IMG/VR virus record: IMGVR_UViG_3300044640_003674 | Coordinates: 4,167 to 68,166 of that record | Length of the DNA stretch: 64,000 nt | Reading direction: 5' to 3' (one strand) | DNA from: a virus | Shown here: piece after piece, positions 3,832 to 40,469 of the stretch | Layout of the letters: every line of letters starts with the position of its first letter | Position numbering within the stretch: the first letter of the stretch is position 1 | Position numbers and translations under genes: made by a program | Notes under the pieces: generated by a model | Told to the model about the DNA's origin: nothing | Databases searched by the model: none | The model's input: the letters and a program-made list of their open reading frames with translations, nothing else

Positions 3832-5112
3832 TTAAGCCAGGTCCCCCGTGAGGAAGACTCGGTTACGTGCACGACTGACACCGACATAGAGCAACCGAGC
3901 GATCTGATCGCCAGAGTTGCATTTGCTGATGTCATCCAGGTCGATGTAGACCTGATCGCAGGTGGAGCCCTGAGCCTTGTCGATCGTGGATGCATAGGAC
4001 GCCCGGAGGTCGATCCATTCATCCGTGATCTCACGAGCAACGCTGTACTCGTCTTCTTCACGGGCCTGCTTCAGCCGTGTGTTCTTGGCTGCGAGGAACA
4101 AGGGCATGAAGTGGGTACTTGTGCCGTTGACAGTGACCATGTGCCCCTGCACACCGTGTACCGTTATCTCACCGCCAATGGCAGTGATCTGGACTCGTTG
4201 GTCCGTCTTAAGCATGCCCTTGCTGCTCATGATTGCGCTGTTAACCAGGGCATAGTCACCGACCTGCAACTGGGGATCGCCCTTGGCATGCTGACGCACG
4301 AACTGGTTGTAGGCGATGACCTGCTTGTTGGTCCAAGCCAGAACCTTCGAGTCACGGAAGTGCCAGTCCGGACGAGTGAACTCGTTCAGCACAGCATCGT
4401 TGAAGTCATCACGATGCAGGTGCACAACGTGGTGACCATCCGGCTTGAAGTTGAAGAACTCGCCGGAGATGACGGTTTCACGGAACTTGGTGGCCAGGGC
4501 AACGATGGGGTGCACCTCTGCCAGCTCGCCTGGTTTGCCTTCCTTCTTGGGTTGGCGAACGACTTCCTTCAGGGTTGCTCCCTTGAAGCCAGCATCGAAC
4601 ACAGGAGATCCTGTGGCCTTCACCGGACGCAGCTGTGCAGGGTCGCCGATGAAGACGATCTTGCAGTTCTCGGTGAGCTCGAAGATGTACTGCAGCAAGG
4701 TCTTGTCGACGAAGCTGGACTCGTCGATGAAGATTAGTGCACCGTTCTTCTTCTCGTACTTGCGAGGGATCAGCTTCGAGTCGCCGGTCTTGTAGTCGGT
4801 GACCACACGCAGACCGAGATACGAGTGAATGGTTCGCACAGTTTGTCCGGTGATCTGACCCAGGTTTTCTGCAGCCGTATTAGTGGTGGCTGTGAGCTCC
4901 AGGTCATAGGGGGTGTAGTTGGGATCGATCAGCCGGATTGTGCGGAGGAATTCCGGCAGTTTATCGAGGAATGTCTGCACCAGAGTACTCTTGCCGCAGC
5001 CAGAGTATCCGGACAGGACGAATACCTTTTCAACCGGGTCAGTGATGAATTCGAACAGAGCATCCAGGGCATTTTGCTGGTCCTGGGTCAGAGTAATTGC
5101 TGGGGCGGCCAT
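3832..5112 (-). CDS. SF1B Dda/RecD-like DNA helicase (N4 gp37-like)
   Basis: Walker A GYSGCGKS, IFIDESS, FIGDPAQL, YASTIDKAQGST, LYVGVSRAR. Confidence 0.92.
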   Translation of the reverse strand: MAAPAITLTQDQQNALDALFEFITDPVEKVFVLSGYSGCGKSTLVQTFLDKLPEFLRTIRLIDPNYTPYDLELTATTNTAAENLGQITGQTVRTIHSYLGLRVVTDYKTGDSKLIPRKYEKKNGALIFIDESSFVDKTLLQYIFELTENCKIVFIGDPAQLRPVKATGSPVFDAGFKGATLKEVVRQPKKEGKPGELAEVHPIVALATKFRETVISGEFFNFKPDGHHVVHLHRDDFNDAVLNEFTRPDWHFRDSKVLAWTNKQVIAYNQFVRQHAKGDPQLQVGDYALVNSAIMSSKGMLKTDQRVQITAIGGEITVHGVQGHMVTVNGTSTHFMPLFLAAKNTRLKQAREEDEYSVAREITDEWIDLRASYASTIDKAQGSTCDQVYIDLDDISKCNSGDQIARLLYVGVSRARNRVFLTGDLA

Positions 5113-29467: not shown

Positions 29468-32400
29468 ATGCGGGCAGTCAATTTACTGGCGCCCAATATG
29501 TCCGACTTCGATTCGTCCTCGTACTTCAAGAAAAAGATTGATTCGCTGAATCTCCCGAAGGGATTTGCGATTCAAGAAGCCATGCAACGAAAGGTTGCTG
29601 ATCTTCAGGAGTATCAGGTAGCAGTTGCAGCTGGACGGGCACTTACTTCCCCTGACAGGACTGTCGGGGATATTGCTGGTGATGTGGCCATTACCGCAGC
29701 CAAGAGCGCTATTGGTTTGCCGGAATCCATTGTCGGTATTGCCGACATTCCCACCGGTGGTCGTGTCGGTAAGTTCATCGAAGAGAACACTCCGATCCAG
29801 TTCAAGAAGACCAAGGAGATCTTGGACTCTGGCTTGTCTGATGCTCAGAAGGAAGCCAACCTGCGAGTGCAGCTGGCTGAGGGTTTCGGTGGCACCATCG
29901 AAGCTGCCCTGGATAACCCGAGCGTCATCGCCACCACGGTGGGCGAATCGCTTGGTTCCATGATCGGTGGTGCCGCGGCTGCTCGAAAGATTCTTGGTGT
30001 CGGTGCCAAGGCAGTCAGTGCCGGTGCAGGAGCTACTGGCCCTGTCCTGCCTGGCGTGCTTGCCCGTAAGGTGGGTACGGACCTGGCACCTGTCATTGCA
30101 GGTGCTGTGGGTGAAGGCATCCTGGGCGCAGGTTCTGCTGCTTCCCAGATCCGAGGTGAGACTGAAGACGGTCTGCTGACCCCCAAGCAAGCCTTGTCGG
30201 CTGTGGGCTCTGGTGCTGGTACTGCTGTCCTTGGCTTCGCCGGTGGCAAGCTGGCTCAGAAGCTGGGTGTGCCTGACCTGGATACGGCCTTGGCAGCTGG
30301 CACGGTGAAGAGTCCTGCTGGTTTCCTGAAGGCAGTTGTTGGTGCAGGCATCTCTGAAGGCGTCTTCGAAGAGATGCCTCAGTCTGCCCAGGAACAGGTA
30401 TGGCAGAACTACGCACTGGACAAGCCCCTGCTGGAAGGCGTGGACAAGGCCTCTGCCATGGGTTTGCTGGCTGGTGTGGCCATGGGTAGCGGTACCGGTG
30501 TTGCAGGCGCTCTGGCGCCTTCTGATGCCGCCAAGCGCAAGCGCAACGACCGGGACGAGGACCCTGCCCGTGAAGCAGTCCTGGAGACGGCCTCCAAGAC
30601 CGGCAACGTGGATGCGTTGCTGAACATCAAGAGCAAGGACTACTCGCCGGAGAACGCTGTCCTGGCTCTGCTGGCACATGCCAAGAATCCGGAAACCAGT
30701 GGAGAGCAACGTGCCACCAACCTGAGCAAGGCCCAGGAAGTGATGGCAGGTCTTGAGCGTCAGCGTGATGCTGCTCGTAGCGAGCTCGAACTGGAGTCTC
30801 CTGAAGGTCTTGCCGCCAAGCTGGGCCAGGTACAGGAAGTCATTGCCTCTGCTCCTGAAGAAGACCGTGCCCTCTACGAAGAGATGCTGGCTGAGCTGCA
30901 GGCTCGTCAGGTCGAGATGGATACCAATCCTGATCGCACCCAGGCGATCAAGGCACTGACGGATCAGATCTCCGGCTTGGATGGTCAGATCTCCAAGGCC
31001 CGACAGTCTGTTGATCAGATTGCTGGCTTGGTGTCTGCTCCTGAGCAGGTGTCTGCCGACATGGCCCTATTGAGCCAAGCAGTGAACACCCAGGACAGCG
31101 ATGCGGTGGCTGCGCAGCAGCAAGCCGCAGAGCGGATCATCAATCTCTCGATGGCCAGTCCCGATCGTGTGGATCGTGCACAAGCGCTTGCCCTGGTGAA
31201 GACCGCGGGCAACGCCTTGACCAACCAGCAGCGTGCTTACCTGCGTGCCTTCTCGGATGCCCGAGTGGCCGACAACCTGGCCAAGGATGCTGACGTGGTG
31301 AGCAGCGACATCTGGCGTGGTTCCTCCAAGGGCGCAGAGGTCAAGTACTGGGGCATCAAGCAGTACCGCCGTGAGATCGCTGCTGCCATCGCTGCCGGTG
31401 ATCAGGCCAAGGCAACTCGTCTGCTGGCTCAGATGCAGAGCTTCAACACCGACCACAGCCAGAAGGCTCGCCTGCTGAGCAAGGTCAAGGACGGCCAACA
31501 GATCATGCGTACCGACGCTGGCTGGGTGGTCAACACCGGCAAGCGCCTCACGAACGCAGAGCGTGACGCCAATGGCGCCTTCACCAAGAACTCCGATGAA
31601 GTCGTGGGGAAGATTGGTCGTGAAGCCAGTGTCCTCCGCGCCGCCACTGCCGAGCTGGCAGCTGCAGTGACTCTCAAGTTCCCAACCACCGCAGGAGACA
31701 TCAATGTCCCGAACTCTGCGCAATCCACGAACCCGAGCACCGGCCAAAGTCGAAGCACGCAAAGTGCATCGGGCCAAGCTGCAACAAGCGAGGGTCAAAG
31801 CGAGTCTGCAGGAGCTGCTGCTCCCGTCGCCGCTGGTAATGGAGTCGATTCACAGTCGACTGGAGTTGGAGTCTCCGACTCTACTCCGGTAGCTCAGAAA
31901 GCTGAGAAGACTCAGGAGACTGCAACTGAAGTTCAGTCGACTACCACTCAAGATCCAGTTGAGGTCATTGAGGAGTCTAATCAGAATGATACAGCCATCA
32001 GTGAAGCGCCGGCAGCGCCTACTCAAGATCAGTTGGCTGAGTCTGTGGAAGATGCACCGCTGGATGAGCTGAGCGCTGAGTCTGCTGAAGCCAGTTCTAC
32101 CGAGACTCAGCCGGGTACTCTGGCTGCTGTCTTGGAGAAAGGTCCTGAAGGAGCTACGTTCTTTGACAAGCGACTGGGTGACTTCGTTGCTCAGGTGGGC
32201 AAGTCTCGTCCTCTGGTTGCAGTCAAAGACTTCATGGATGAGGTCCGTGCAGGTAAGAAGAAGATCACAGACTTCCTGCCGGATACTGAGTTGTCTGATG
32301 ATCAGAAGAATGTGATTCGTCTGCTGTCTGGCAAGCTCCGTCAGTGGTCTGATCCGATCAAGAAGAATCTGCGTCCTCGTGACAAGTTCCAGCACGAAGA

Positions 32401-35400
32401 TCCCATTCGTTTCTTGACTGGTTCCGGTGACCTGGAGCAGAACGTGAAGACAGCCATGGTTGCGGCTGCATTCACCTGGCTCAATGATGAGATCCGTCGC
32501 AAGTCGAATACGGACGAGGCGATCAACGCTCTGTTGGGTCGTGACTCGGATCACCAGGTGAGCCTGGCTGAGCGCAATCTCTTCAACGAAGGCTCGTATC
32601 AGTCCACCGTGGCTGAGGCTCTGGGCCAGCGGATCATTGCTGCCCTTGGCTTCAAGGCCTTCAAGGATGCCCCGCAAGACATCCTGCCGAAGCTGAAGAT
32701 GTCCTTGGGCTCACATGCCCTGGCCCTGTTGGAGCAGCAAGGCATGGTGGAGAGCTTCACCGTCCCTGACTCTGTGATTCGTCGGATGCGTGGTGAAGAT
32801 CTCGAGGTCGCTGAGCAGGGTGGAAAGCCAGACCTGGATCACACCTTCTACAAGCTGGTGCAGGATTCCAAGGAAGTCCTGGACATCACTGACACGATGG
32901 CTGGTACGAAGGGCATCCTGGACAAGCTGTTCGGTATTGAGTCTTCACAGATTCGTCCGAGCCTGGCACCGGTGAAGGGTGTCCAGAAGACCACAGACAC
33001 CGGCATGGGCGTGCCCAATGCCTTGCAGAAGGTGGTTCGTCAGAACCAGACCAAGAACGAGCGGCACCTGAACACAGGTCCGATGGATGTCCTGGCCAAG
33101 CTGGATGAAGAGCTGGCTCTGGCGATCGCTGGTGTGGTGCGTCCTGATGAGCACACCCATGGCGCCAAGCGCCGCAGCATCGAAGCCAAGAACGATGGAC
33201 TCGCCCGTGAGTACAAGAACTTCATGGAGTTCGTCCTCGAAGACTTGGTGCAGGGTGAAGGCAAGGACAAGGGCTTCTTCTACCGCTATGACGTGTGGAA
33301 GCAGCAGCGCGTCGGTATCAAGACCAACGTGGGCAATCCGCAGACCAGCAAGATCGCACGCTGGTTGACCTACTCCAAGGCCTGGAACACGGAGATCCGC
33401 TTCGACGATACGAATCTGATGACTGGTTTCATGCTCCGAGTGGCTGAAGGCCTGGGGGTCAAGACGGAACGTGGTGCAAGCGAGCTGTCGGTGGCCAAGG
33501 CAGAAGCTGCATTGAAGCAGCCTGAGATGGTGGCCGGTGTTGCAGCTATCCGTGCAGCACTGGATGGTGCTGACCTGAGTGCTGAACAGCAGGCCGCGGT
33601 GGTTGCTGCTGTGAAGGCGGCAGGAGAAAAGATGCACAGCCTGGCCGCTCTGGTGGCCTGGGCGCAGCACCAGGCAGCCAAGGAGGCCGGGCAAGAAGCA
33701 TTCACTACCAACCTCATGGGTGAAGTCGATGGTGTGGCCAACGGCACGATGCTGAACCATGTGCTGTACGGAGCTGGCACTGATGGTCTGCTGGAGCGTG
33801 GTGGCTTCTTCACCTTGGACAGCAAGTTCCGTCAGTTCAATCTGTGGCGCGGTACTCCAGGGAACCTGGACATCTACGAAGCCACAGCCAAGAAGATCTC
33901 TCAGTACATCGCCAGCATGAGTGACCTGGGCCAGCTGACTGGGGCAATCTGGTCGGTGATCGGCAATCCGGTGGACACGGAAGGCAATGCCACCAAGGAC
34001 GGTCGCACGCTGGTGAAGAGTGCTCTGAATCCGCTGAACTATGGTTCTGGCTTCAACAGTGTGAAGCGCAACCTGGCCGGTGAGTTCATCGAGTCGATCT
34101 ACAGCGCCTTCGAGGACTTCTCTTCGGGCAAGCGCCCGAGCGTGACCAAGCCCGAGAGCCTGAATGACTTTGTGCAGCAGCTGAATGTGCTGCTGGCCCA
34201 GACCAAGAACACTCGCCTGCTCCCGATCAATGAGCCGGCCAGCTTCTACCTGGAAGCCAATGTCCTGAGCTACAAGCAGATCGATGCACTGGAGAGCGTC
34301 TACACCGGCATCGTTGGTCAGGCTGTGGAGGATGTGGTTGGTGTTGAGTTTGGTGGCTTCATGGCTTCGACCAAGCAGCTCATCAAGACCACGCAGCTGA
34401 CCTATGACCTGTTCAATGCGGTCTACCAGGCTGAGCGTGAGAAGCTGATCGCTGACCTGGGCATTCCCACTCGCAAGAAGCGTGATGCTGAAGGTGTGCC
34501 CGTTCACGATCTGACAGCAGAGCAGGAAGGTGAGCTCCGTAGTCGTCTGGCTTCGATCATGCCGCTGATGCACACGGCTATGTCGCAGCGTGATGACAAC
34601 TACCGCAATGGCATCCTGTTGGCCAAGCGTGAGCTGCAGCGTGCACCGAACAACAGCTACGAAGTTGAGGTGACCTTCGGCCAGAAGATCAAGAATGGTC
34701 AGCACACGATGACTGTTCGCCCTCAAGTGATGGGGCAGGCTGGTCCTGGTGTGTTGGCTGTGTCTGCTGGTACTCACTCGACTGACAGTGCGATCTCTCA
34801 CGACACTCAAGATGGTCGACCAATCCTGAACATCCACGACGCATTGGGTGGTGGTGTCGGTGGTCTGGCTGAGATGACCACGGCTTTCAACAAGGCAACC
34901 TTCGAGAACCTGCTGGCCTACTCTCCCCTGCGTGCTGGACACAATGCGCTGGCTCGTGTGGTGACTGGTTTGGCCAAGATGCATTCCGATGGTCAGTTGT
35001 CTGATCAGGCCCTGGCCAACATCAAGAAGGTGCTGAAGTCTGGCAAGTCCCTGGACAAGGCACTGCAGGATTCTTTCGAGGCAGCACTGCTGGCCGATCG
35101 ATCCAAGCTGGACATCATGAGCCGGTGGGCAGTGGTCGACCAGTACCCGATGGACAACAACGGGTACCAGGTGACGGATGCTGATCGCAAGCGAGTCAAC
35201 ACCCTGGCAGCCAACCTGGCTCCTGATGTTGCTCCTCTGACCCAGGCAGCAAGCGAAGTCCTGAATCAGGCTCTTGGCTTCAAGGCGGAGAAGAAGGCAC
35301 CGGCACAGAAGCCTGCTGCCAAGCAATCGAACTGGGGCACTGTCGGTACGCCTACTGCTGCACCGAACCCGCTGCTGTTGAGCCTGCTCCAGGGTAAGGG

Positions 35401-38400
35401 CAAGGTTTCTGCCAAGTCTGTGGTCGAGACTCTGCAGGGCGTGCAGTGGCGCAATCCTGGCTACAAGCTCCTGCTGGATCTGGTTGCCAAGGCTCTGCCC
35501 GACAACCTGACGGTGCAGATGGTTGATACGAGCACTCCGGTGGATCAGGTGATCGAGATGCCCAAGATGCCTTCCAAGGCCTGGATGGTGTCTGGCTCTG
35601 GTCGGAACGAGATCTACTTCCTGGGTCCTGAGTTTGCAGCCTCTGCAATGACTCCTGAGACTCTGCTGCACGAGCTCCTGCATGGTGCGCTGGCTCGCTA
35701 CCTGGTGGATCTCAGCTCCGGCAAGGTGAAAGACCCTGACGCTCAGGCCTTGGTGGCTGAGTTGGAGAAGCTGCTGGAGCGTGCTCGCAAGCATGAGCTG
35801 GCTGACAAGTACCAGGCTGCACTGAGCAACCTGGATGAGTTCATCTCCTGGGGCATGACCAATGCTGCCTTCCAGGCAGATGTGCTGACCAAGCTGCGAG
35901 TGACTCATAAGTCGAGTCAGAACAAGTGGCTGAGCGGCATGCAGGACTTCATGCGCAACCTGACCCAGCTGATGGGCAAGGCCCTGGGCCGCAAGCTCAA
36001 CGGTGAAGCTGTCAACGGTCTTGGCCTGCTGGTTGCTAATGTGACTGGTTTGGTCAAGGCAGCGGAGCAGCAAAAGGCAGGTGACCCTGCTGAAGCAACG
36101 CTGAACCTGTCGATGGCTGCGGTGGATGACTACACCACCAGCCAGATCTTCCAGGCGCTGAATGAGCCCAGCAAGCCCCTGGAGCCTGCATTCGAGTCTC
36201 AGCTGAGCCGTATGCTGGGTGGCATCGTCAACACGCTCCATGGCCCGTTTGGTGCCTTTGCCGCGGCAGTCCGGGGCTACGCCCCTGCCTCGCCGCTGGA
36301 TGCTTGGTTGGTGGCTCAGCAGAATGGCCTGGTGCCCTTCTCCAGCGAGGTGGCTGCAAACCTGCCGGCATCACAGCAAGAGCTGTTCGTGATCGAGCAG
36401 ATCGAGGCTACGGTCAAGGCAGCGCTGCAGGACAACGCAGCTCTGACCAAGGTGGCCTACAAGGAGCTGACGGAAGTGTTCTCCGAAGCACAACAGACGC
36501 TGAAGCCTTCGGACTTCAAGGACCCTGCTCACTACGACTTCATCTTCGGTGTGAAGGCTGCGGGATCTGACGGCAAGAGCGACTATCTGGCCCGGTTCGC
36601 TGCGCTGGCGCTCGCTCACCAGGGCCTGAACAAGTTGCTGCAAGTTCCGAGCAAGAAGACCCGGAACATCAGCGACGGCAAGACGCTGGCCGACAAAGTT
36701 GAGATCGCTTTCGAGAAGATCCTTGGGTTCTTCTCTCGGATGGCTACGAAGACCTTCGACGGTCAGCGACTGGACAGCAAGGTGCAGACCTTGGTGGAGC
36801 AGCTGGTCAGTATCGAAGCCAAGCAGCGTGAAGCGATCAAGGATCAGCAGGCACGCAAGGACTTCCTGGCTCCGGTCGAGGAGATGGTCAAGACTGGTCG
36901 TGATGCGGTCATGAGCAAGCTCGAAGCCGCGGCAGGTTCTGAGTTCTTCCGCAATGCCAAGAGCGGTGCGGTGCGTGGTGGTGCTGCCCTGGTTCGGACG
37001 GTGGCAATGAACCGCCAGGAAGAGTTCCTGAAGCAGTTCCAGGACTACCGCGACAACACGCTCAATGAGCGTGGTGGTTTCCTGTCTTCCATCTTGAATG
37101 AGGTGGTGGGCCAGAAGGAATTCGCAGAGAAGGCACTCCGTGTTGTGAAGCACTTCGAGAACCGTCGAAAGGGTGTCATCGACGGTACCAGCAAGATGGC
37201 TCTGGAGTCCTTCATCAACGAAGGCAAGGACCTGACGGAAGAAGCCAAGGCAGCACTGACCCGAGTGTTCATGCGGACAGGTGCACACACCCTGATGGGT
37301 CGCTATGACTTCACCCAGCTGCAGAGCATGCTGACTGATCGTGCTGCGATCTTGAAGGAAGTGGCTGCTATCGAGGCGGCATTCCCTGCCAAGCTGCGTC
37401 GGCTGTATGTTGGCCAGGCTCAGGCCCTTGGCCTACATAAGGCTACTGGTTTGGTCGAAGGCCTGGTGATGCCCAATGCTCATGTGATCGCTCGCATGCT
37501 GGGCACTCCGTATCAGCAGCAGATCGATGCTGATCAGGCCGCGGCACATGAGGATGGCGTCAAGGCACTGATCACTCTGTATGCCCTGCTGCACACGGAC
37601 AAAGCCAGCAAGACCGAAGCAGCCCAGGTCCTGGCCAAGGAGCTCGCTCGTGATGATGGCGGCAACGGTGTGGACTTCCTGCTGAAGGCTACTCGCCAGT
37701 TCGAGCAGGATTCCCTTGAGCGCCTCTTCGCCGGTAACCCGGTGCTGATGCAGCATGGCTACACCCCGGAGATCTACAACCCGCACACCGACATCAAGGT
37801 GGTGACGGCAGAGGAAGGCCAGAAGCTGGCAGCCCAGGGCTACACGGCACACTCGAAGCTGAGCGAAGACCCTGCTGATCCGGACAGCGAGAGCAAGCAG
37901 ATCTTCGTTCGAAGCGGTGCTGCACTGGCTCGCTGGGAATCGGGTGTGATGTCGCTGACGGATGTGGGTACCAAGGGCACCACGATCCACAACGGATTCA
38001 CGAACCCCAAGCATCCGGACGGTGCACAGAATGCAAGTCGTCAGGCCGCGGTGACGCAAGCCAAGATGAACCTGCTGCGTCAGCCGTTGGGCCCGCATCG
38101 AGACATGAGCAAGACAGCCAAGAGCGGTCTGGTTCCTGTCTACAACGAGCAGGGAAAAATTGTGAACTGGCGCTATCTGATGCGTGAGCAGACCAAGGAT
38201 GTGGTGCTGCAGCGGAACAATCGTTTCGAGGATGTTCTGGGTACTTACGCTGGTTCGATCTTTGACAAGACCGGTACCCCCAAGAACAACCTGGCAGCGA
38301 TCCAGGCCTTGAAGACGCAGTACGACGCAGATGGTAGCGTTCGTCGACTGAAGGGCTACCACCTGGTGGGTCCGGATAGTCCTGATGCTGAGCTGCGGAC

Positions 38401-39580
38401 CATCTGGGGTCTGCTGCCTGAGCAAGCCAAGGCTGATGTGAAGCGTATCTGGGGTCTGGACGGTATGTGGGTTCACACCGACAGCTTGGACATCATGTTC
38501 GGCTATCGGGCAGCATCTGCTGCTGAGTTCCTGCGCAAGGACAAGGAAGCCCTCAACGGTATCCAGGCTGCGATGCGTGAGTGGTTCCACGGCATGGCAA
38601 AGACCATGGGCAAGAGCGACGAAGAGGCAAACAACCTGGCCAAGAAGTGGGGCTGGCAGTTGGCCAAGGGCGAGGAAGCCTGGAAGGAGATCGTCAAGGA
38701 GATGAAGGACATCATCGTGGTGAAGTCTGGCATCGTGATGCTGAACAACATCCGATCGAACTTCACCCAGCTGGTGCTGTCAGGTGTCCCGGTGAAAGAC
38801 ATGGTTCGTCATCACCTCGTTGGTATGCGTGGTGCCATGGCCTATGAGCGGGACTTCAATGAACTGCAGCGTCTGGAGACACTGCTGGCAGTGGACTACA
38901 CCATTGAAGGTCAGGCCAACATCGAACGACAGATTGCCAAGCTCAAAGACTCTCTCGCACGTAACCCTGTGCGTGAGTTGATCGAGGCTGGCTTGATGCC
39001 GACTATTGTTGAAGACGTTGCTGCAGATGATGACCTGTACTCGTACAAGTCTGTGCTGGCTTCGAAGGTTGCTCCGCTCACTCAGCGAGTTCCTGTGCCC
39101 TTGCGAGATGCGGCCAAGACGGTCTATATGGCACATGACACCAAGCTGTATGGTGCTCTGAACCGTGTTGCTCGACTGTCTGACTTCGTGGCTCGCTATG
39201 CCTTGTATCAACACCTGACCACGCGAGCAGTTGATCAGATGACTTCGGAACAAGCTATCCAGCGTGCTTCTGAGACATTCATCAACTACGACATTCCAAT
39301 GCACCGCGGCATGCAGTACCTGGACAGCATGGGTCTGTTCATGTTCACCAAGTACTTCCTGCGTGTGCAGCGTGTTCTGGCTCGTACATTCAAGGAGAGC
39401 CCTGGTCGAGTGTTGGGAATGATTGCCGCAGACTACTTTGCGGACGTTGGCCCCAACGTGCTGGAAGGTTCTGCAGTGAACCACTTTGGTGATAACCCAT
39501 GGAGGTGGGGTGCGTTCCAGTTCCCTGGAACTCTGGACAAGCTGGCTACTGTTGCAGTGCCTATGTCGATCATCAAATGA
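29468..39580 (+). CDS. Virion-encapsidated RNA polymerase (N4 gp50-like); start may be 29498
   Basis: 3370 aa, no Cys seen; motif A EVDGVANG, motif B RTLVKSALNPLNYG, motif C NIHDA; C-terminal region with HELLH. Confidence 0.96.
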   Translation: MRAVNLLAPNMSDFDSSSYFKKKIDSLNLPKGFAIQEAMQRKVADLQEYQVAVAAGRALTSPDRTVGDIAGDVAITAAKSAIGLPESIVGIADIPTGGRVGKFIEENTPIQFKKTKEILDSGLSDAQKEANLRVQLAEGFGGTIEAALDNPSVIATTVGESLGSMIGGAAAARKILGVGAKAVSAGAGATGPVLPGVLARKVGTDLAPVIAGAVGEGILGAGSAASQIRGETEDGLLTPKQALSAVGSGAGTAVLGFAGGKLAQKLGVPDLDTALAAGTVKSPAGFLKAVVGAGISEGVFEEMPQSAQEQVWQNYALDKPLLEGVDKASAMGLLAGVAMGSGTGVAGALAPSDAAKRKRNDRDEDPAREAVLETASKTGNVDALLNIKSKDYSPENAVLALLAHAKNPETSGEQRATNLSKAQEVMAGLERQRDAARSELELESPEGLAAKLGQVQEVIASAPEEDRALYEEMLAELQARQVEMDTNPDRTQAIKALTDQISGLDGQISKARQSVDQIAGLVSAPEQVSADMALLSQAVNTQDSDAVAAQQQAAERIINLSMASPDRVDRAQALALVKTAGNALTNQQRAYLRAFSDARVADNLAKDADVVSSDIWRGSSKGAEVKYWGIKQYRREIAAAIAAGDQAKATRLLAQMQSFNTDHSQKARLLSKVKDGQQIMRTDAGWVVNTGKRLTNAERDANGAFTKNSDEVVGKIGREASVLRAATAELAAAVTLKFPTTAGDINVPNSAQSTNPSTGQSRSTQSASGQAATSEGQSESAGAAAPVAAGNGVDSQSTGVGVSDSTPVAQKAEKTQETATEVQSTTTQDPVEVIEESNQNDTAISEAPAAPTQDQLAESVEDAPLDELSAESAEASSTETQPGTLAAVLEKGPEGATFFDKRLGDFVAQVGKSRPLVAVKDFMDEVRAGKKKITDFLPDTELSDDQKNVIRLLSGKLRQWSDPIKKNLRPRDKFQHEDPIRFLTGSGDLEQNVKTAMVAAAFTWLNDEIRRKSNTDEAINALLGRDSDHQVSLAERNLFNEGSYQSTVAEALGQRIIAALGFKAFKDAPQDILPKLKMSLGSHALALLEQQGMVESFTVPDSVIRRMRGEDLEVAEQGGKPDLDHTFYKLVQDSKEVLDITDTMAGTKGILDKLFGIESSQIRPSLAPVKGVQKTTDTGMGVPNALQKVVRQNQTKNERHLNTGPMDVLAKLDEELALAIAGVVRPDEHTHGAKRRSIEAKNDGLAREYKNFMEFVLEDLVQGEGKDKGFFYRYDVWKQQRVGIKTNVGNPQTSKIARWLTYSKAWNTEIRFDDTNLMTGFMLRVAEGLGVKTERGASELSVAKAEAALKQPEMVAGVAAIRAALDGADLSAEQQAAVVAAVKAAGEKMHSLAALVAWAQHQAAKEAGQEAFTTNLMGEVDGVANGTMLNHVLYGAGTDGLLERGGFFTLDSKFRQFNLWRGTPGNLDIYEATAKKISQYIASMSDLGQLTGAIWSVIGNPVDTEGNATKDGRTLVKSALNPLNYGSGFNSVKRNLAGEFIESIYSAFEDFSSGKRPSVTKPESLNDFVQQLNVLLAQTKNTRLLPINEPASFYLEANVLSYKQIDALESVYTGIVGQAVEDVVGVEFGGFMASTKQLIKTTQLTYDLFNAVYQAEREKLIADLGIPTRKKRDAEGVPVHDLTAEQEGELRSRLASIMPLMHTAMSQRDDNYRNGILLAKRELQRAPNNSYEVEVTFGQKIKNGQHTMTVRPQVMGQAGPGVLAVSAGTHSTDSAISHDTQDGRPILNIHDALGGGVGGLAEMTTAFNKATFENLLAYSPLRAGHNALARVVTGLAKMHSDGQLSDQALANIKKVLKSGKSLDKALQDSFEAALLADRSKLDIMSRWAVVDQYPMDNNGYQVTDADRKRVNTLAANLAPDVAPLTQAASEVLNQALGFKAEKKAPAQKPAAKQSNWGTVGTPTAAPNPLLLSLLQGKGKVSAKSVVETLQGVQWRNPGYKLLLDLVAKALPDNLTVQMVDTSTPVDQVIEMPKMPSKAWMVSGSGRNEIYFLGPEFAASAMTPETLLHELLHGALARYLVDLSSGKVKDPDAQALVAELEKLLERARKHELADKYQAALSNLDEFISWGMTNAAFQADVLTKLRVTHKSSQNKWLSGMQDFMRNLTQLMGKALGRKLNGEAVNGLGLLVANVTGLVKAAEQQKAGDPAEATLNLSMAAVDDYTTSQIFQALNEPSKPLEPAFESQLSRMLGGIVNTLHGPFGAFAAAVRGYAPASPLDAWLVAQQNGLVPFSSEVAANLPASQQELFVIEQIEATVKAALQDNAALTKVAYKELTEVFSEAQQTLKPSDFKDPAHYDFIFGVKAAGSDGKSDYLARFAALALAHQGLNKLLQVPSKKTRNISDGKTLADKVEIAFEKILGFFSRMATKTFDGQRLDSKVQTLVEQLVSIEAKQREAIKDQQARKDFLAPVEEMVKTGRDAVMSKLEAAAGSEFFRNAKSGAVRGGAALVRTVAMNRQEEFLKQFQDYRDNTLNERGGFLSSILNEVVGQKEFAEKALRVVKHFENRRKGVIDGTSKMALESFINEGKDLTEEAKAALTRVFMRTGAHTLMGRYDFTQLQSMLTDRAAILKEVAAIEAAFPAKLRRLYVGQAQALGLHKATGLVEGLVMPNAHVIARMLGTPYQQQIDADQAAAHEDGVKALITLYALLHTDKASKTEAAQVLAKELARDDGGNGVDFLLKATRQFEQDSLERLFAGNPVLMQHGYTPEIYNPHTDIKVVTAEEGQKLAAQGYTAHSKLSEDPADPDSESKQIFVRSGAALARWESGVMSLTDVGTKGTTIHNGFTNPKHPDGAQNASRQAAVTQAKMNLLRQPLGPHRDMSKTAKSGLVPVYNEQGKIVNWRYLMREQTKDVVLQRNNRFEDVLGTYAGSIFDKTGTPKNNLAAIQALKTQYDADGSVRRLKGYHLVGPDSPDAELRTIWGLLPEQAKADVKRIWGLDGMWVHTDSLDIMFGYRAASAAEFLRKDKEALNGIQAAMREWFHGMAKTMGKSDEEANNLAKKWGWQLAKGEEAWKEIVKEMKDIIVVKSGIVMLNNIRSNFTQLVLSGVPVKDMVRHHLVGMRGAMAYERDFNELQRLETLLAVDYTIEGQANIERQIAKLKDSLARNPVRELIEAGLMPTIVEDVAADDDLYSYKSVLASKVAPLTQRVPVPLRDAAKTVYMAHDTKLYGALNRVARLSDFVARYALYQHLTTRAVDQMTSEQAIQRASETFINYDIPMHRGMQYLDSMGLFMFTKYFLRVQRVLARTFKESPGRVLGMIAADYFADVGPNVLEGSAVNHFGDNPWRWGAFQFPGTLDKLATVAVPMSIIK

Positions 39581-39583
39581 GTT

Positions 39584-39676
39584 TGGGCATTGAAGGTGGG
39601 GGTCGAACCCACAAGAGGTGCTTATTTCCTCCGGCCCGCTGAAGGGCCTACGGTTACCAATTTCGTCACTTCGCCC
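39584..39676 (-). tRNA. Aberrant tRNA-Leu(CAG)-like element / pseudo-tRNA
   Basis: GGGCGAAG-UG-ACG-AAAUUGGUAAC-CGU-A-GGCCC-UUCAGC-GGGCC-long variable arm-GUGGG-UUCGACC-CCCAC-CUUC-AAU-GCCCA. D and T arms intact; 6-nt anticodon loop; bulged acceptor stem. Confidence 0.6.
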
Positions 39677-39803
39677 AGGGGAGTAGCGATCCCCCCTATC
39701 CAACCTCAGTGTGCCCACTGGGGTTGAAGTCTTGTTTGTTGCCAGCTGCCGCAGTTTCATCCCGGCTGGCGCGTGATCTCATGACCGATCAGCGGCTTTC
39801 ATT

Positions 39804-39909
39804 TGATGGTGGCCGGTACTGATCTCCGGCTTGCTCCGTCTCGCAAGGCTTATTTCATCCAGGCTCGGCAGCAGGTAATCACGCGCATCAGCCTGCGCAT
39901 TCACCATCA
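39804..39909 (-). ncRNA. C4-antisense-RNA-like structured motif
   Basis: UGAUGGUG-AAU-GCGCA-GGCUGA-UGCGC...GCCGG-AGAUCAGUA-CCGGC-CACCAUCA; loop-loop complementarity GCUGAU/AUCAGU. Family assignment is from recall, not a search. Confidence 0.6.
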
Positions 39910-40019
39910 TTGAATCACCCTCGCCACATCCCCATATCCGGGGAGCTGTCTCGAACAGGGATGGTTACCTGCCGTCTAGTGTTGCTGAGCGCTCAGCACG
40001 AAGGCGATTCGATGATGGT

Positions 40020-40460
40020 CCCAGTCTTTCCTGGGTGTCAGCACTCTCTACAGACCTTGTGGCTATGCTTGCCTACCGTCACGTCCTGTAGTCGACGCCC
40101 GAGCTTTAGACGACTCATCTCGGGAAAGCTGTGTTTATGGCAGTACGTTGCCAGCCCGTCAGCGGGATAGTTGAAGGGTTCCCAGATTCGCATGCGGCAG
40201 CGTTACAGGGAGGTTGATCTGGAGATCACTACGAGGCCAAATCCGTAGTTCTAGGTCCCCTTCGAGGGTGTGGACCAATAGGGCGCCTCATTTATTCGCC
40301 CCCATTTCACCGGCTAGCACGGATAGAGGTAAGTCACTTGGCAGCTACTTGGCACAGGCCCACCTGCTCGAATGGCCTTTGTCACTCCATGCCTGGAGCG
40401 CATTTCACTGTTGCTGGCTTGATCCACACTCTCGAAGAGCCCCGTCTTTCCGGGGTGTCA
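40020..40460 (-). repeat. Two-copy motif UGACA-CCC(A/C)G-GAAAGA-C(U/G)GGG
   Basis: Copies at 40020-40040 and 40440-40460; the only two differences are compensatory within the stem. Confidence 0.85.
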
Positions 40461-40469
40461 TGAGACTTG

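Follow-up and report, generated by a model that had tools for sequence, protein, structure and literature searches.

A repeated hairpin-and-stem module and a predicted tRNA-shaped RNA domain in a non-coding gap of an N4-like phage

We analysed a 64,000-nucleotide (nt) window from an N4-like phage, positions 4,167 to 68,166 of the 68-kb IMG/VR virus record IMGVR_UViG_3300044640_003674, with a focus on an 889-nt gap (39581-40469) that carries two copies of a short hairpin, here called hp1, each followed by a long stem, and a predicted transfer RNA (tRNA)-shaped domain, R1. The gap separates an SSB/RuvC operon from the convergent gene for virion RNA polymerase (vRNAP), which is an open reading frame (ORF) of 3370 amino acids (aa) at 29468-39580 on the plus strand, with a PHROG 2206 match at 1774 bits. 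On the minus strand beside the vRNAP gene are encoded a Sak4-like annealing protein, SSB, a RuvC-like resolvase and two small ORFs. The last ORF of this operon has 64 aa and a TGA stop at 40472-40470, and the first hairpin, hp1-a, starts 9 nt later. The gap is non-coding DNA at the 3' end of the replication/recombination operon.

Both hairpins lie on the minus strand and are present in the sequence and in its minimum-free-energy folds. hp1-a (40460-40440) consists of UGACA, a CCCCG/CGGGG stem and a GAAAGA loop, and its exact 21-mer recurs in IMG/VR and in the Genome Taxonomy Database (GTDB); hp1-b (40040-40020) consists of UGACA, a CCCAG/CUGGG stem and the same loop. A first-pass annotation of the window had described two such hairpins 420 nt apart that differ by one compensatory pair, each followed by a long stem with a single A-C mismatch around about 140 and 75 nt of cargo, and all of this was borne out by measurement. 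The distance is exactly 420 nt, the sole difference is a C-G pair replaced by A-U, and the 5' arm of a long stem begins 0 nt after each hairpin, with the sequence CUCUUCG after hp1-a and ACCAUCA after hp1-b. Long stem 1 and its cargo (40258-40439, minus strand; 5' arm 40439-40421, 3' arm 40276-40258) comprise 19 positions with 18 pairs (2 G-U) and, at position 10, an A-C mismatch; the enclosed cargo is rich in hairpins and measures 144 nt. Long stem 2 and its cargo (39903-40019, minus strand) comprise 21 positions with 20 pairs (2 G-U) and, at position 9, a C-A mismatch, the cargo being 75 nt long; its 5' arm (40019-39999) begins ACCAUCAUCG and its 3' arm (39923-39903) ends AAUGAUGGU.

All four helices, two hairpins and two stems, appear in the minimum-free-energy folds, with fold z-scores of -3.03 for module 1 and -3.94 for module 2 plus the following domain (0 of 200 shuffles as good in each case). 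Read from the opposite strand, each stem would carry two mismatches and one wobble pair, which mildly favours the minus strand. The 64-kb window holds these two GAAAGA-loop hairpins with a stem of at least four pairs and no more, and TGACANNNNNGAAAGA with at most one mismatch gave three matches against 1.55 expected, a result that is weak taken alone. Support for the module comes instead from outside the window, because the pairing of motif and stem recurs in other genomes.

Across the loci fetched for comparison, which are cited here by L number, the hp1 consensus is NGACA followed by a 4-5-bp G/C stem and a GARAGA hexaloop. Stem variants include CCCCG, CCCAG, CCCTG/CAGGG, GCCGG, GCCCG, TGCGG, GCCG, ACGG, GCGU and GUCG, and 23 distinct variants of secondary copies have loops that read GAAAGA, GAGAGA or, rarely, GAACAGA. 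The stem varies freely by covariation, while the loop and its closing G-C pair are kept, and G-U pairs (CCCUG/CGGGG, CCUCG/CGGGG) arise on the hp1-reading strand only. A hairpin-only search that did not require the pentamer recovered at least 119 IMG/VR loci; among the matches listed, 39 lacked an exact TGACA, of which 2 had two changes, 3 were unrelated and 34 carried one-letter variants (GGACA 12, TGGCA 8, AGACA 7, TGACG 5, TGACT 1, CGACA 1). The predominance of one-letter variants, 34 of 39, couples the 5' pentamer to the hairpin.

We scanned sequence collections with the 21-mer, leaving the fourth stem pair free, and the resulting counts are lower bounds. The 21-mer was found in at least 117 IMG/VR loci, and the 118 usable IMG/VR occurrences listed reduce to 76 unique contexts with unrelated flanks, in which information content is close to zero directly upstream of hp1 and downstream amounts to a weak A-C-Y-W-W-C-A alone. 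With one genome taken per species, 55 GTDB genome contigs carry it, one copy each, against a chance expectation of about 4 (our own arithmetic: 19 fixed bases, 596 Gb, equal base frequencies); among the carriers are Burkholderiales, Cyanobacteria, Bacteroidales, Clostridia, Patescibacteria, Spirochaetes and Acidimicrobiia. The exact motif has few cultured carriers, namely Xanthomonas phages FoX2 and FoX5 and Phage zth2-2, and the motif also occurs in two uncultured Manatee Spring metagenome phage records. In FoX2 it lies in a non-coding stretch after the tail genes, with a 19-pair stem at 0 nt and a tRNA gene nearby. Relative to genes, hp1 is co-oriented in about 70% of cases, the naive ORFs being too noisy for more. 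A 21-28-nt RNA signal is thus kept almost letter for letter in unrelated phages and prophages across many bacterial phyla.

The first-pass annotation had set beforehand, as a refutation test, an association between the motif and long stems in other genomes. Using a stem finder that required at least 14 pairs, at most one mismatch, no bulges and a start 0-3 nt after hp1, we found a long stem in 22 of 73 unique contexts and at 5 of 365 control positions in the same loci, so that the proposed arrangement, a repeated signal and closing stem around unrelated structured cargo, is supported. Over all loci there are 38 distinct modules, with stem lengths that peak at 19-21 pairs (8, 7 and 4 modules; 19 of 38). 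This is the size of a ribonuclease III (RNase III) substrate, and a helix of about two turns (~20 bp or more), as looked for at such sites, is present in the window (19 and 21 positions, one mismatch each) as in these 19 modules elsewhere. A single mismatch occurs in 21 of the 38 modules, in 17 of them between positions 3 and 10, counted from hp1. From locus to locus the cargo behind hp1 is unrelated: in L027 it is a real tRNA whose acceptor stem is lengthened by 9 bp, and a T-arm lies within the cargo of L048, L166 and L008. Pairing of the upstream with the downstream flank, as a helix enclosing hp1, was at background (8 contexts with at least 6 pairs, 7.1 expected).

tRNA genes themselves also follow hp1. 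Examined on the same strand only, 11 of 136 unique contexts have an ARAGORN-predicted tRNA whose start lies 2-8 nt beyond hp1. Simple tests on the 76 contexts gave 27 with a stem of at least 12 pairs, 5 with an adjacent tRNA, 6 with a U-run and 6 with a ribosome-binding site (RBS) plus start codon. Stem covariation, G-U pairs on one strand, and same-strand tRNAs and RBS-plus-start sites together indicate that hp1 acts at the RNA level, as a hairpin on the strand of the downstream genes.

These contexts also bear on a role in transcription. A consensus scan flags hp1-b as a sigma-70 promoter, CTGACA-18-CATCAT, with 9 of 12 positions matched, in which cTGACA would be the -35 element, the hairpin the spacer and CATCAT the -10 element; the U-runs that follow hp1 in 6 of 76 contexts (L033, L035 and L040 among them) would suit an intrinsic terminator. 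A -10 element that has A2 and T6 and lies 16-18 nt beyond the -35 occurs, however, in 4 of 76 contexts against 0-5 in displaced control windows, the start site would fall inside the tRNA where one begins 2-8 nt after hp1, and a spacer needs no compensatory base pairs. With 70 of 76 contexts and both window copies devoid of a U-run, we regard either kind of transcription signal as extremely improbable. A stop-codon role for the TGA of the motif was rejected as well, since it ends long ORFs in 8 of 76 contexts, against 7 and 4 in the other two frames. The stop of the 64-aa ORF and the UGA of hp1-a (40470-40460, minus strand) do share a frame, three codons apart; this is probably chance, there being no frame bias across the 76 contexts.

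The change of cargo between loci has a counterpart in mosaic break points at hp1. Eleven downstream clusters each occur with 2 upstream clusters, 8 upstream clusters occur with 2-3 downstream clusters, and among IMG/VR and GTDB occurrences 26 one-sided pairs stand beside 45 two-sided pairs, a comparison based on ungapped identity, so that insertions and deletions inflate the one-sided count. Such a pattern would be expected if hp1 acted in DNA, as a shared 21-bp sequence or single-strand hairpin for module exchange or cassette insertion. We find this very unlikely, because the long arms differ by locus and leave no shared terminal repeats for a transposase, no recombinase is shared among the naive ORFs of at least 70 aa in the fetched flanks, and the one-strand G-U covariation and tRNA co-orientation point to RNA; break points at gene or module borders are, moreover, expected in phages anyway.

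In the window, the RNA following module 2 is R1 (39803-39910, minus strand), which is predicted from an alignment, pair counts and a covariance model (95.5 bits, E = 6e-24, the window sequence being one of the 12 training rows of that model). R1 comprises an 8-bp closing helix (39909-39902/39811-39804), AAU, the hairpin hpX (39898-39883), a variable middle and the hairpin hpY (39830-39812); hpX is D-like, and hpY, which adjoins the 3' strand of the closing helix, is T-like. R1 and stem 2 have bases 39909-39903 in common, such that the 3' arm of stem 2 doubles as the 5' strand of the helix that closes R1. The arm ends of stem 2, ACCAUCA... and ...UGAUGGU, recur in L027, L048, L130, L166, L174 and L176. 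In the window, as at many other loci, the ...UGAUGGU arm is followed by the same series: G-AAU, hpX as GCGCA-GGCUGA-UGCGC, 50-100 variable nt, hpY as GCCGG-AGAUCAGYA-CCGGC, C, and ACCAUCA, which we call A2. As A2 is complementary to the 3' arm, the segment is predicted to fold like a tRNA, with a closing helix, D-like and T-like arms and a contact between their loops. That contact pairs CUGAU with AUCAG; in L132 and L161 the pairing is GGUGAU/AUCACC instead, and in L142 it is UGAUGA/UCAUCA.

The alignment of 12 R1 sequences has 97.1% of its cells paired, and both sides have changed in 7 of the 23 pairs; the covariation score was reached by 0 of 500 shuffles, and slid controls were at most 53.6% paired. 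The kissing helix between the loops is 100% paired, with one pair changed on both sides and one pair on one side. The rows were chosen and the structure drawn by eye, which favours the structure somewhat; the compensatory changes are independent of this. On this alignment we conclude that R1 is a tRNA-shaped domain that shares a strand with the preceding stem, a predicted fold that covariation supports.

The covariance model returned 24 matches at E < 1e-4 in 18 of 175 sources, 12 of them its training rows; some loci hold two copies, and the window holds one. Two further copies lie in tandem in Klebsiella phage KlebP_265 (PQ480913; L216), at 2497-2606 and 2688-2803 (77.6 and 66.6 bits), about 140 nt upstream of tRNA-Ser, Arg and Met, and the annotation places small hypothetical proteins across them. 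Searches for homologues of the gap in cultured phages matched the R1 part alone, in this phage. Other lake-metagenome phage contigs match the two conserved ends of R1 only, with 71 or 104 letters between them against 49-51. R1 had no match in Rfam, the tRNA family RF00005 included. More broadly, in 14 of 36 modules (0.86 expected) the outer 3' arm has a perfect 7-mer complement at a distance of 30-300 nt downstream, and in 9 modules (0.12 expected) a hairpin directly precedes this complement. Two pairing partners are available to the 3' arm, namely the 5' arm (~20 bp) and A2 (8 bp). We also observed a conserved 24-codon ORF (MLE/DxxVRFxEELxD...) with an RBS some 110 nt beyond R1, at ~11960-12035 of L027 and ~6095-6170 of L130, once in an IMG/VR contig and once in an Achromobacter chromosome.

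We tentatively favour, with considerable reserve, a reading of the gap as a co-transcribed array of stable structured RNAs in which hp1 marks the 5' edge where host RNase III or ribonuclease P (RNase P) cuts. The array would consist of two cassettes (hp1, a ~20-bp closing stem and variable cargo), R1 and a terminal aberrant tRNA-like gene, and hp1 would be the signal at the 5' foot of a helix that joins both ends of a structured RNA, be it a long stem, a tRNA or a tRNA-like domain. Host endonucleases would cut out the units, RNase III inside the ~20-bp helices and RNase P at the 5' edge of a tRNA or of R1; helix length makes the former a candidate, and the tRNA and tRNA-like ends the latter. 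Because the arm of stem 2 is shared with R1 and hp1 lies 2-8 nt before tRNAs, tRNA-type processing by RNase P is no less plausible than cutting by RNase III. Once the long stem was cut or melted, its freed 3' arm could close R1 by pairing with A2, a copy of the 5' arm that lies further downstream, and hp1 would be left as a 3'-terminal hairpin on the upstream RNA; it may in addition provide a constant point of reference, or a surface to which a conserved factor binds. The choice of pairing among the three segments gives a directly testable model of ordered RNA maturation.

Several points weigh against the processed array. Around 30 of the 76 contexts have no long stem, tRNA, U-run or RBS directly after hp1 in the simple tests, the position of the stem mismatch is loosely constrained (3-10 in 17 of 21 single-mismatch stems), and R1 arrays occur without hp1, as in KlebP_265. 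An hp1 located 2-8 nt from an RNase P site could hinder cleavage, given that the RNase P protein binds the leader. Transcription of the array, its RNA ends and its cleavage are steps that we infer. Finally, a boundary or cap hairpin would not need a near-invariant GARAGA and NGACA across phyla; that near-invariance points to a specific partner, whether a protein or an RNA surface.

The partner could be a conserved RNA-binding protein, encoded by the host or by a distant phage gene, for which hp1 would be a site that shields the array from Rho or nucleases or loads a factor onto the adjacent RNA, much as lambdoid phages recruit N/Nus factors through their purine-rich boxB hairpins. A loop and pentamer that stay near-invariant while the stem varies are typical of a protein or tertiary recognition site, and hp1 appears to share with the lambda nut boxB a 5-bp G/C stem, a GA-rich loop and, presumably, a place in a transcribed leader; hp1-a stands exactly at the end of translation, where ~870 nt of untranslated RNA begin. 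In L131, L146, L151 and L028/L052, one or two extra GAAAGA-loop hairpins lie directly 5' of UGACA, which there becomes a linker between tandem hairpins, an arrangement that would also suit a protein. Unlike boxB, however, hp1 has a hexaloop and a conserved 5' NGACA and is found in many phyla and unrelated phages, whereas N-like proteins are lineage-specific, and neither a boxA-like element nor an N protein was identified. Clustering of neighbouring proteins placed the listed loci in 64 groups and found no family in more than 9 of the 64 groups listed and none at a fixed position, on the basis of naive ORFs of at least 70 aa in the fetched flanks only, so that small or distant partners could escape. 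As hp1 also keeps no fixed distance from any upstream signal, we rate the protein site as somewhat unlikely.

Cross-phylum conservation without a conserved protein would fit a universal RNA target such as tRNA, and hp1 is associated with tRNAs and with RNAs that resemble them. In T-box stem I, in RNase P and in the L1 stalk, two interdigitated T-loops dock on the tRNA elbow. hp1 might accordingly be a self-contained tertiary module that stacks on the adjacent helix, for which the 0-nt junction with the long stem allows coaxial stacking, and that nucleates or locks the fold of its neighbour or docks on a tRNA elbow. UGACA would fit the U-N-N-N-A outline of a T-loop, and the GAGAGA loop variant contains AGAGA, as does the AG bulge of the Clostridium tetani glyS T-box, which reads AGAGAG in an excerpt of PMC11404447. 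The two pentamers, however, stand in the opposite order to those of the T-box, a loop of 6 nt with a closing G-C pair is unlike the usual 5 + 2-nt T-loop hairpin, and the hp1 loop has no conserved partner: in R1 the D-like loop is paired with the T-like loop of the same domain, not with hp1. Such a module is in our view distinctly unlikely.

A bolder reading, which we hold to be unlikely, would make hp1 a protein-independent, phage-universal RNA device that stacks on tRNAs and tRNA-like RNAs at their terminal helix and fixes the site of action of a universal host ribonuclease, through a ruler or through docking on an elbow or helix, and would make hp1 together with R1 a new class of tRNA-scaffolded cargo RNAs. 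If this were true, the choice between 5' arm, 3' arm and A2 would order maturation, and phages would use such scaffolds to deliver fast-evolving small RNAs.

Known RNA systems share parts of this arrangement. RNase III processing leaves a hairpin on the upstream product, and, as in the RNase III stems of T7 early RNA and rRNA operons, imperfect helices of ~20 bp are formed here from sequences that flank units of a presumed polycistronic RNA; the conserved foot hairpin with its invariant loop, and a stem arm that doubles as a tRNA-like strand, differ from known RNase III sites. hp1 also has what we take to be a likeness to Rnt1p-type rulers. With the T4 tRNA cluster and RNase P-processed tRNA-like ends the array has in common a position among or near tRNA genes. 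Like a tRNA, R1 has a closing helix, here of 8 bp, a 5-bp T-like arm that adjoins its 3' strand and a contact between D-like and T-like loops; unlike a tRNA, it makes this contact by a 5-bp Watson-Crick kiss rather than an elbow, its loops have no tRNA consensus, its middle varies over 50-100 nt and it encodes no CCA.

YrlA RNA, as described in an excerpt of PMC4201824, has ends that form a long stem and a tRNA-like domain in the order T arm, acceptor-like stem-loop and D arm, to which the order hp1, long stem and hpX in the phage corresponds. The phage differs in that its hp1 and hpX loops lack T- and D-loop sequences and it has no Ro60/TROVE gene: the Ro60/TROVE domain (PF05731) had 0 matches in the 68-kb virus record, and controls matched. 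No scan gave an Rfam match to Y RNA or YrlA, the presence of a YrlA model in Rfam not having been checked. The association of phage-borne structured RNA with tRNA genes further recalls GOLLD, ROOL and theta (HDV-like; HDV, hepatitis delta virus) ribozymes. Theta ribozymes lie 3' of tRNAs, whereas hp1 lies 5'. An excerpt of PMC10879173 puts the theta cleavage site adjacent to phage tRNAs, the side not being given there. For a known ribozyme core, the conserved unpaired bases of hp1 are too few, and GOLLD, ROOL, HDV-like and hammerhead models gave no Rfam match.

Self-cleavage by a known ribozyme was rejected for the gap, where hammerhead, twister, pistol, hatchet and HDV-like models had no Rfam match at E up to 10; elsewhere, 12 other loci held no ribozyme at gathering score and 4 loci none at E up to 1. 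Against Rfam 15 the whole window had zero matches at gathering score, and the gap at E up to 10 gave a sub-threshold tRNA-Sec and three chance matches (E 2.9-8.1) in flanking coding sequence. Neither hp1 nor R1 is in Rfam 15, and string searches of the published literature, supplements excluded (those of PMC10879173 and PMC4201824 among them), returned no description of either.

Other searches of the locus were negative. Neither a phage-encoded RNase III nor an RtcB was found, the best antisense targets of gap RNA inside the window were 13-mers at E = 0.7, a comparison of the gap with E. coli genomes yielded just one 27-nt piece in 2 of 5426 genomes, and the equivalent place in LUZ7 is coding and gave no lead. 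A recoded gene across the gap, with TGA read as Trp, was considered and rejected: the 64-aa ORF then reaches only 116 aa, and the other such frames, of 165 aa on the minus strand and of 223 aa and 3503 aa on the plus strand, the last a read-through of vRNAP, were judged non-coding by eye, being of biased composition or frame-shifted read-throughs of flanking genes. Mimicry of clustered regularly interspaced short palindromic repeats (CRISPR) and IS200/IS605-type insertion-sequence ends were considered and dropped because each of the 55 contigs has a single match and the sole CRISPR case lies in a spacer, not a repeat. That case is L158, a contig of a metagenome-assembled genome in GTDB, in which the hp1 21-mer (165-185) sits within a spacer of a type I-E-like array with repeats on either side; its presence there suggests that the host acquired immunity against an hp1-bearing phage at this site.

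In deposited phage genomes, regions of this kind carry either small hypothetical proteins or no annotation at all, as in FoX2 and KlebP_265. If hp1 is a processing or recognition signal, it would provide a handle for finding phage small RNAs in metagenomes and a portable part for stable RNA expression in bacteria. In FoX2 (L118), three annotated hypothetical proteins of 29-35 aa at 2154-2653 cover the hp1 module and degenerate hp1 copies (2248, 2867); these ORFs are probably mis-annotated non-coding RNA.

The remaining parts of the gap, all on the minus strand, are a structured spacer between the modules (40041-40257), for which no homologue was found and in which the R1 model had no match; a linker (39676-39802) with further hairpins, including GCCAGC...GCUGGC, that by eye resembles the ~60-nt linker before the next hp1 in L057; and the aberrant tRNA-like gene of 90 nt (39586-39675), which ends 6 nt away from the stop codon of the opposite-strand vRNAP gene. 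ARAGORN reports this gene as tRNA-???, and its best Rfam match is tRNA-Sec at 18.8 bits against a gathering score of 47, which falls short of a tRNA assignment. Its T-arm is canonical, its variable arm long and its acceptor stem bulged, and its anticodon loop, UUCAGC, has 6 nt in place of the 7 nt of a tRNA; the loop includes UCA, and its length accounts for the 2-nt 'anticodon' given by ARAGORN. Unusual tRNAs occur near hp1 elsewhere: the tRNA-Leu of FoX2 is 91-99 nt long and contains an insertion, and odd anticodon loops are seen in L034 ('tc'), where the tRNA follows hp1 directly, in L053 ('aata'), where it lies near hp1, and in L134 ('cgga').

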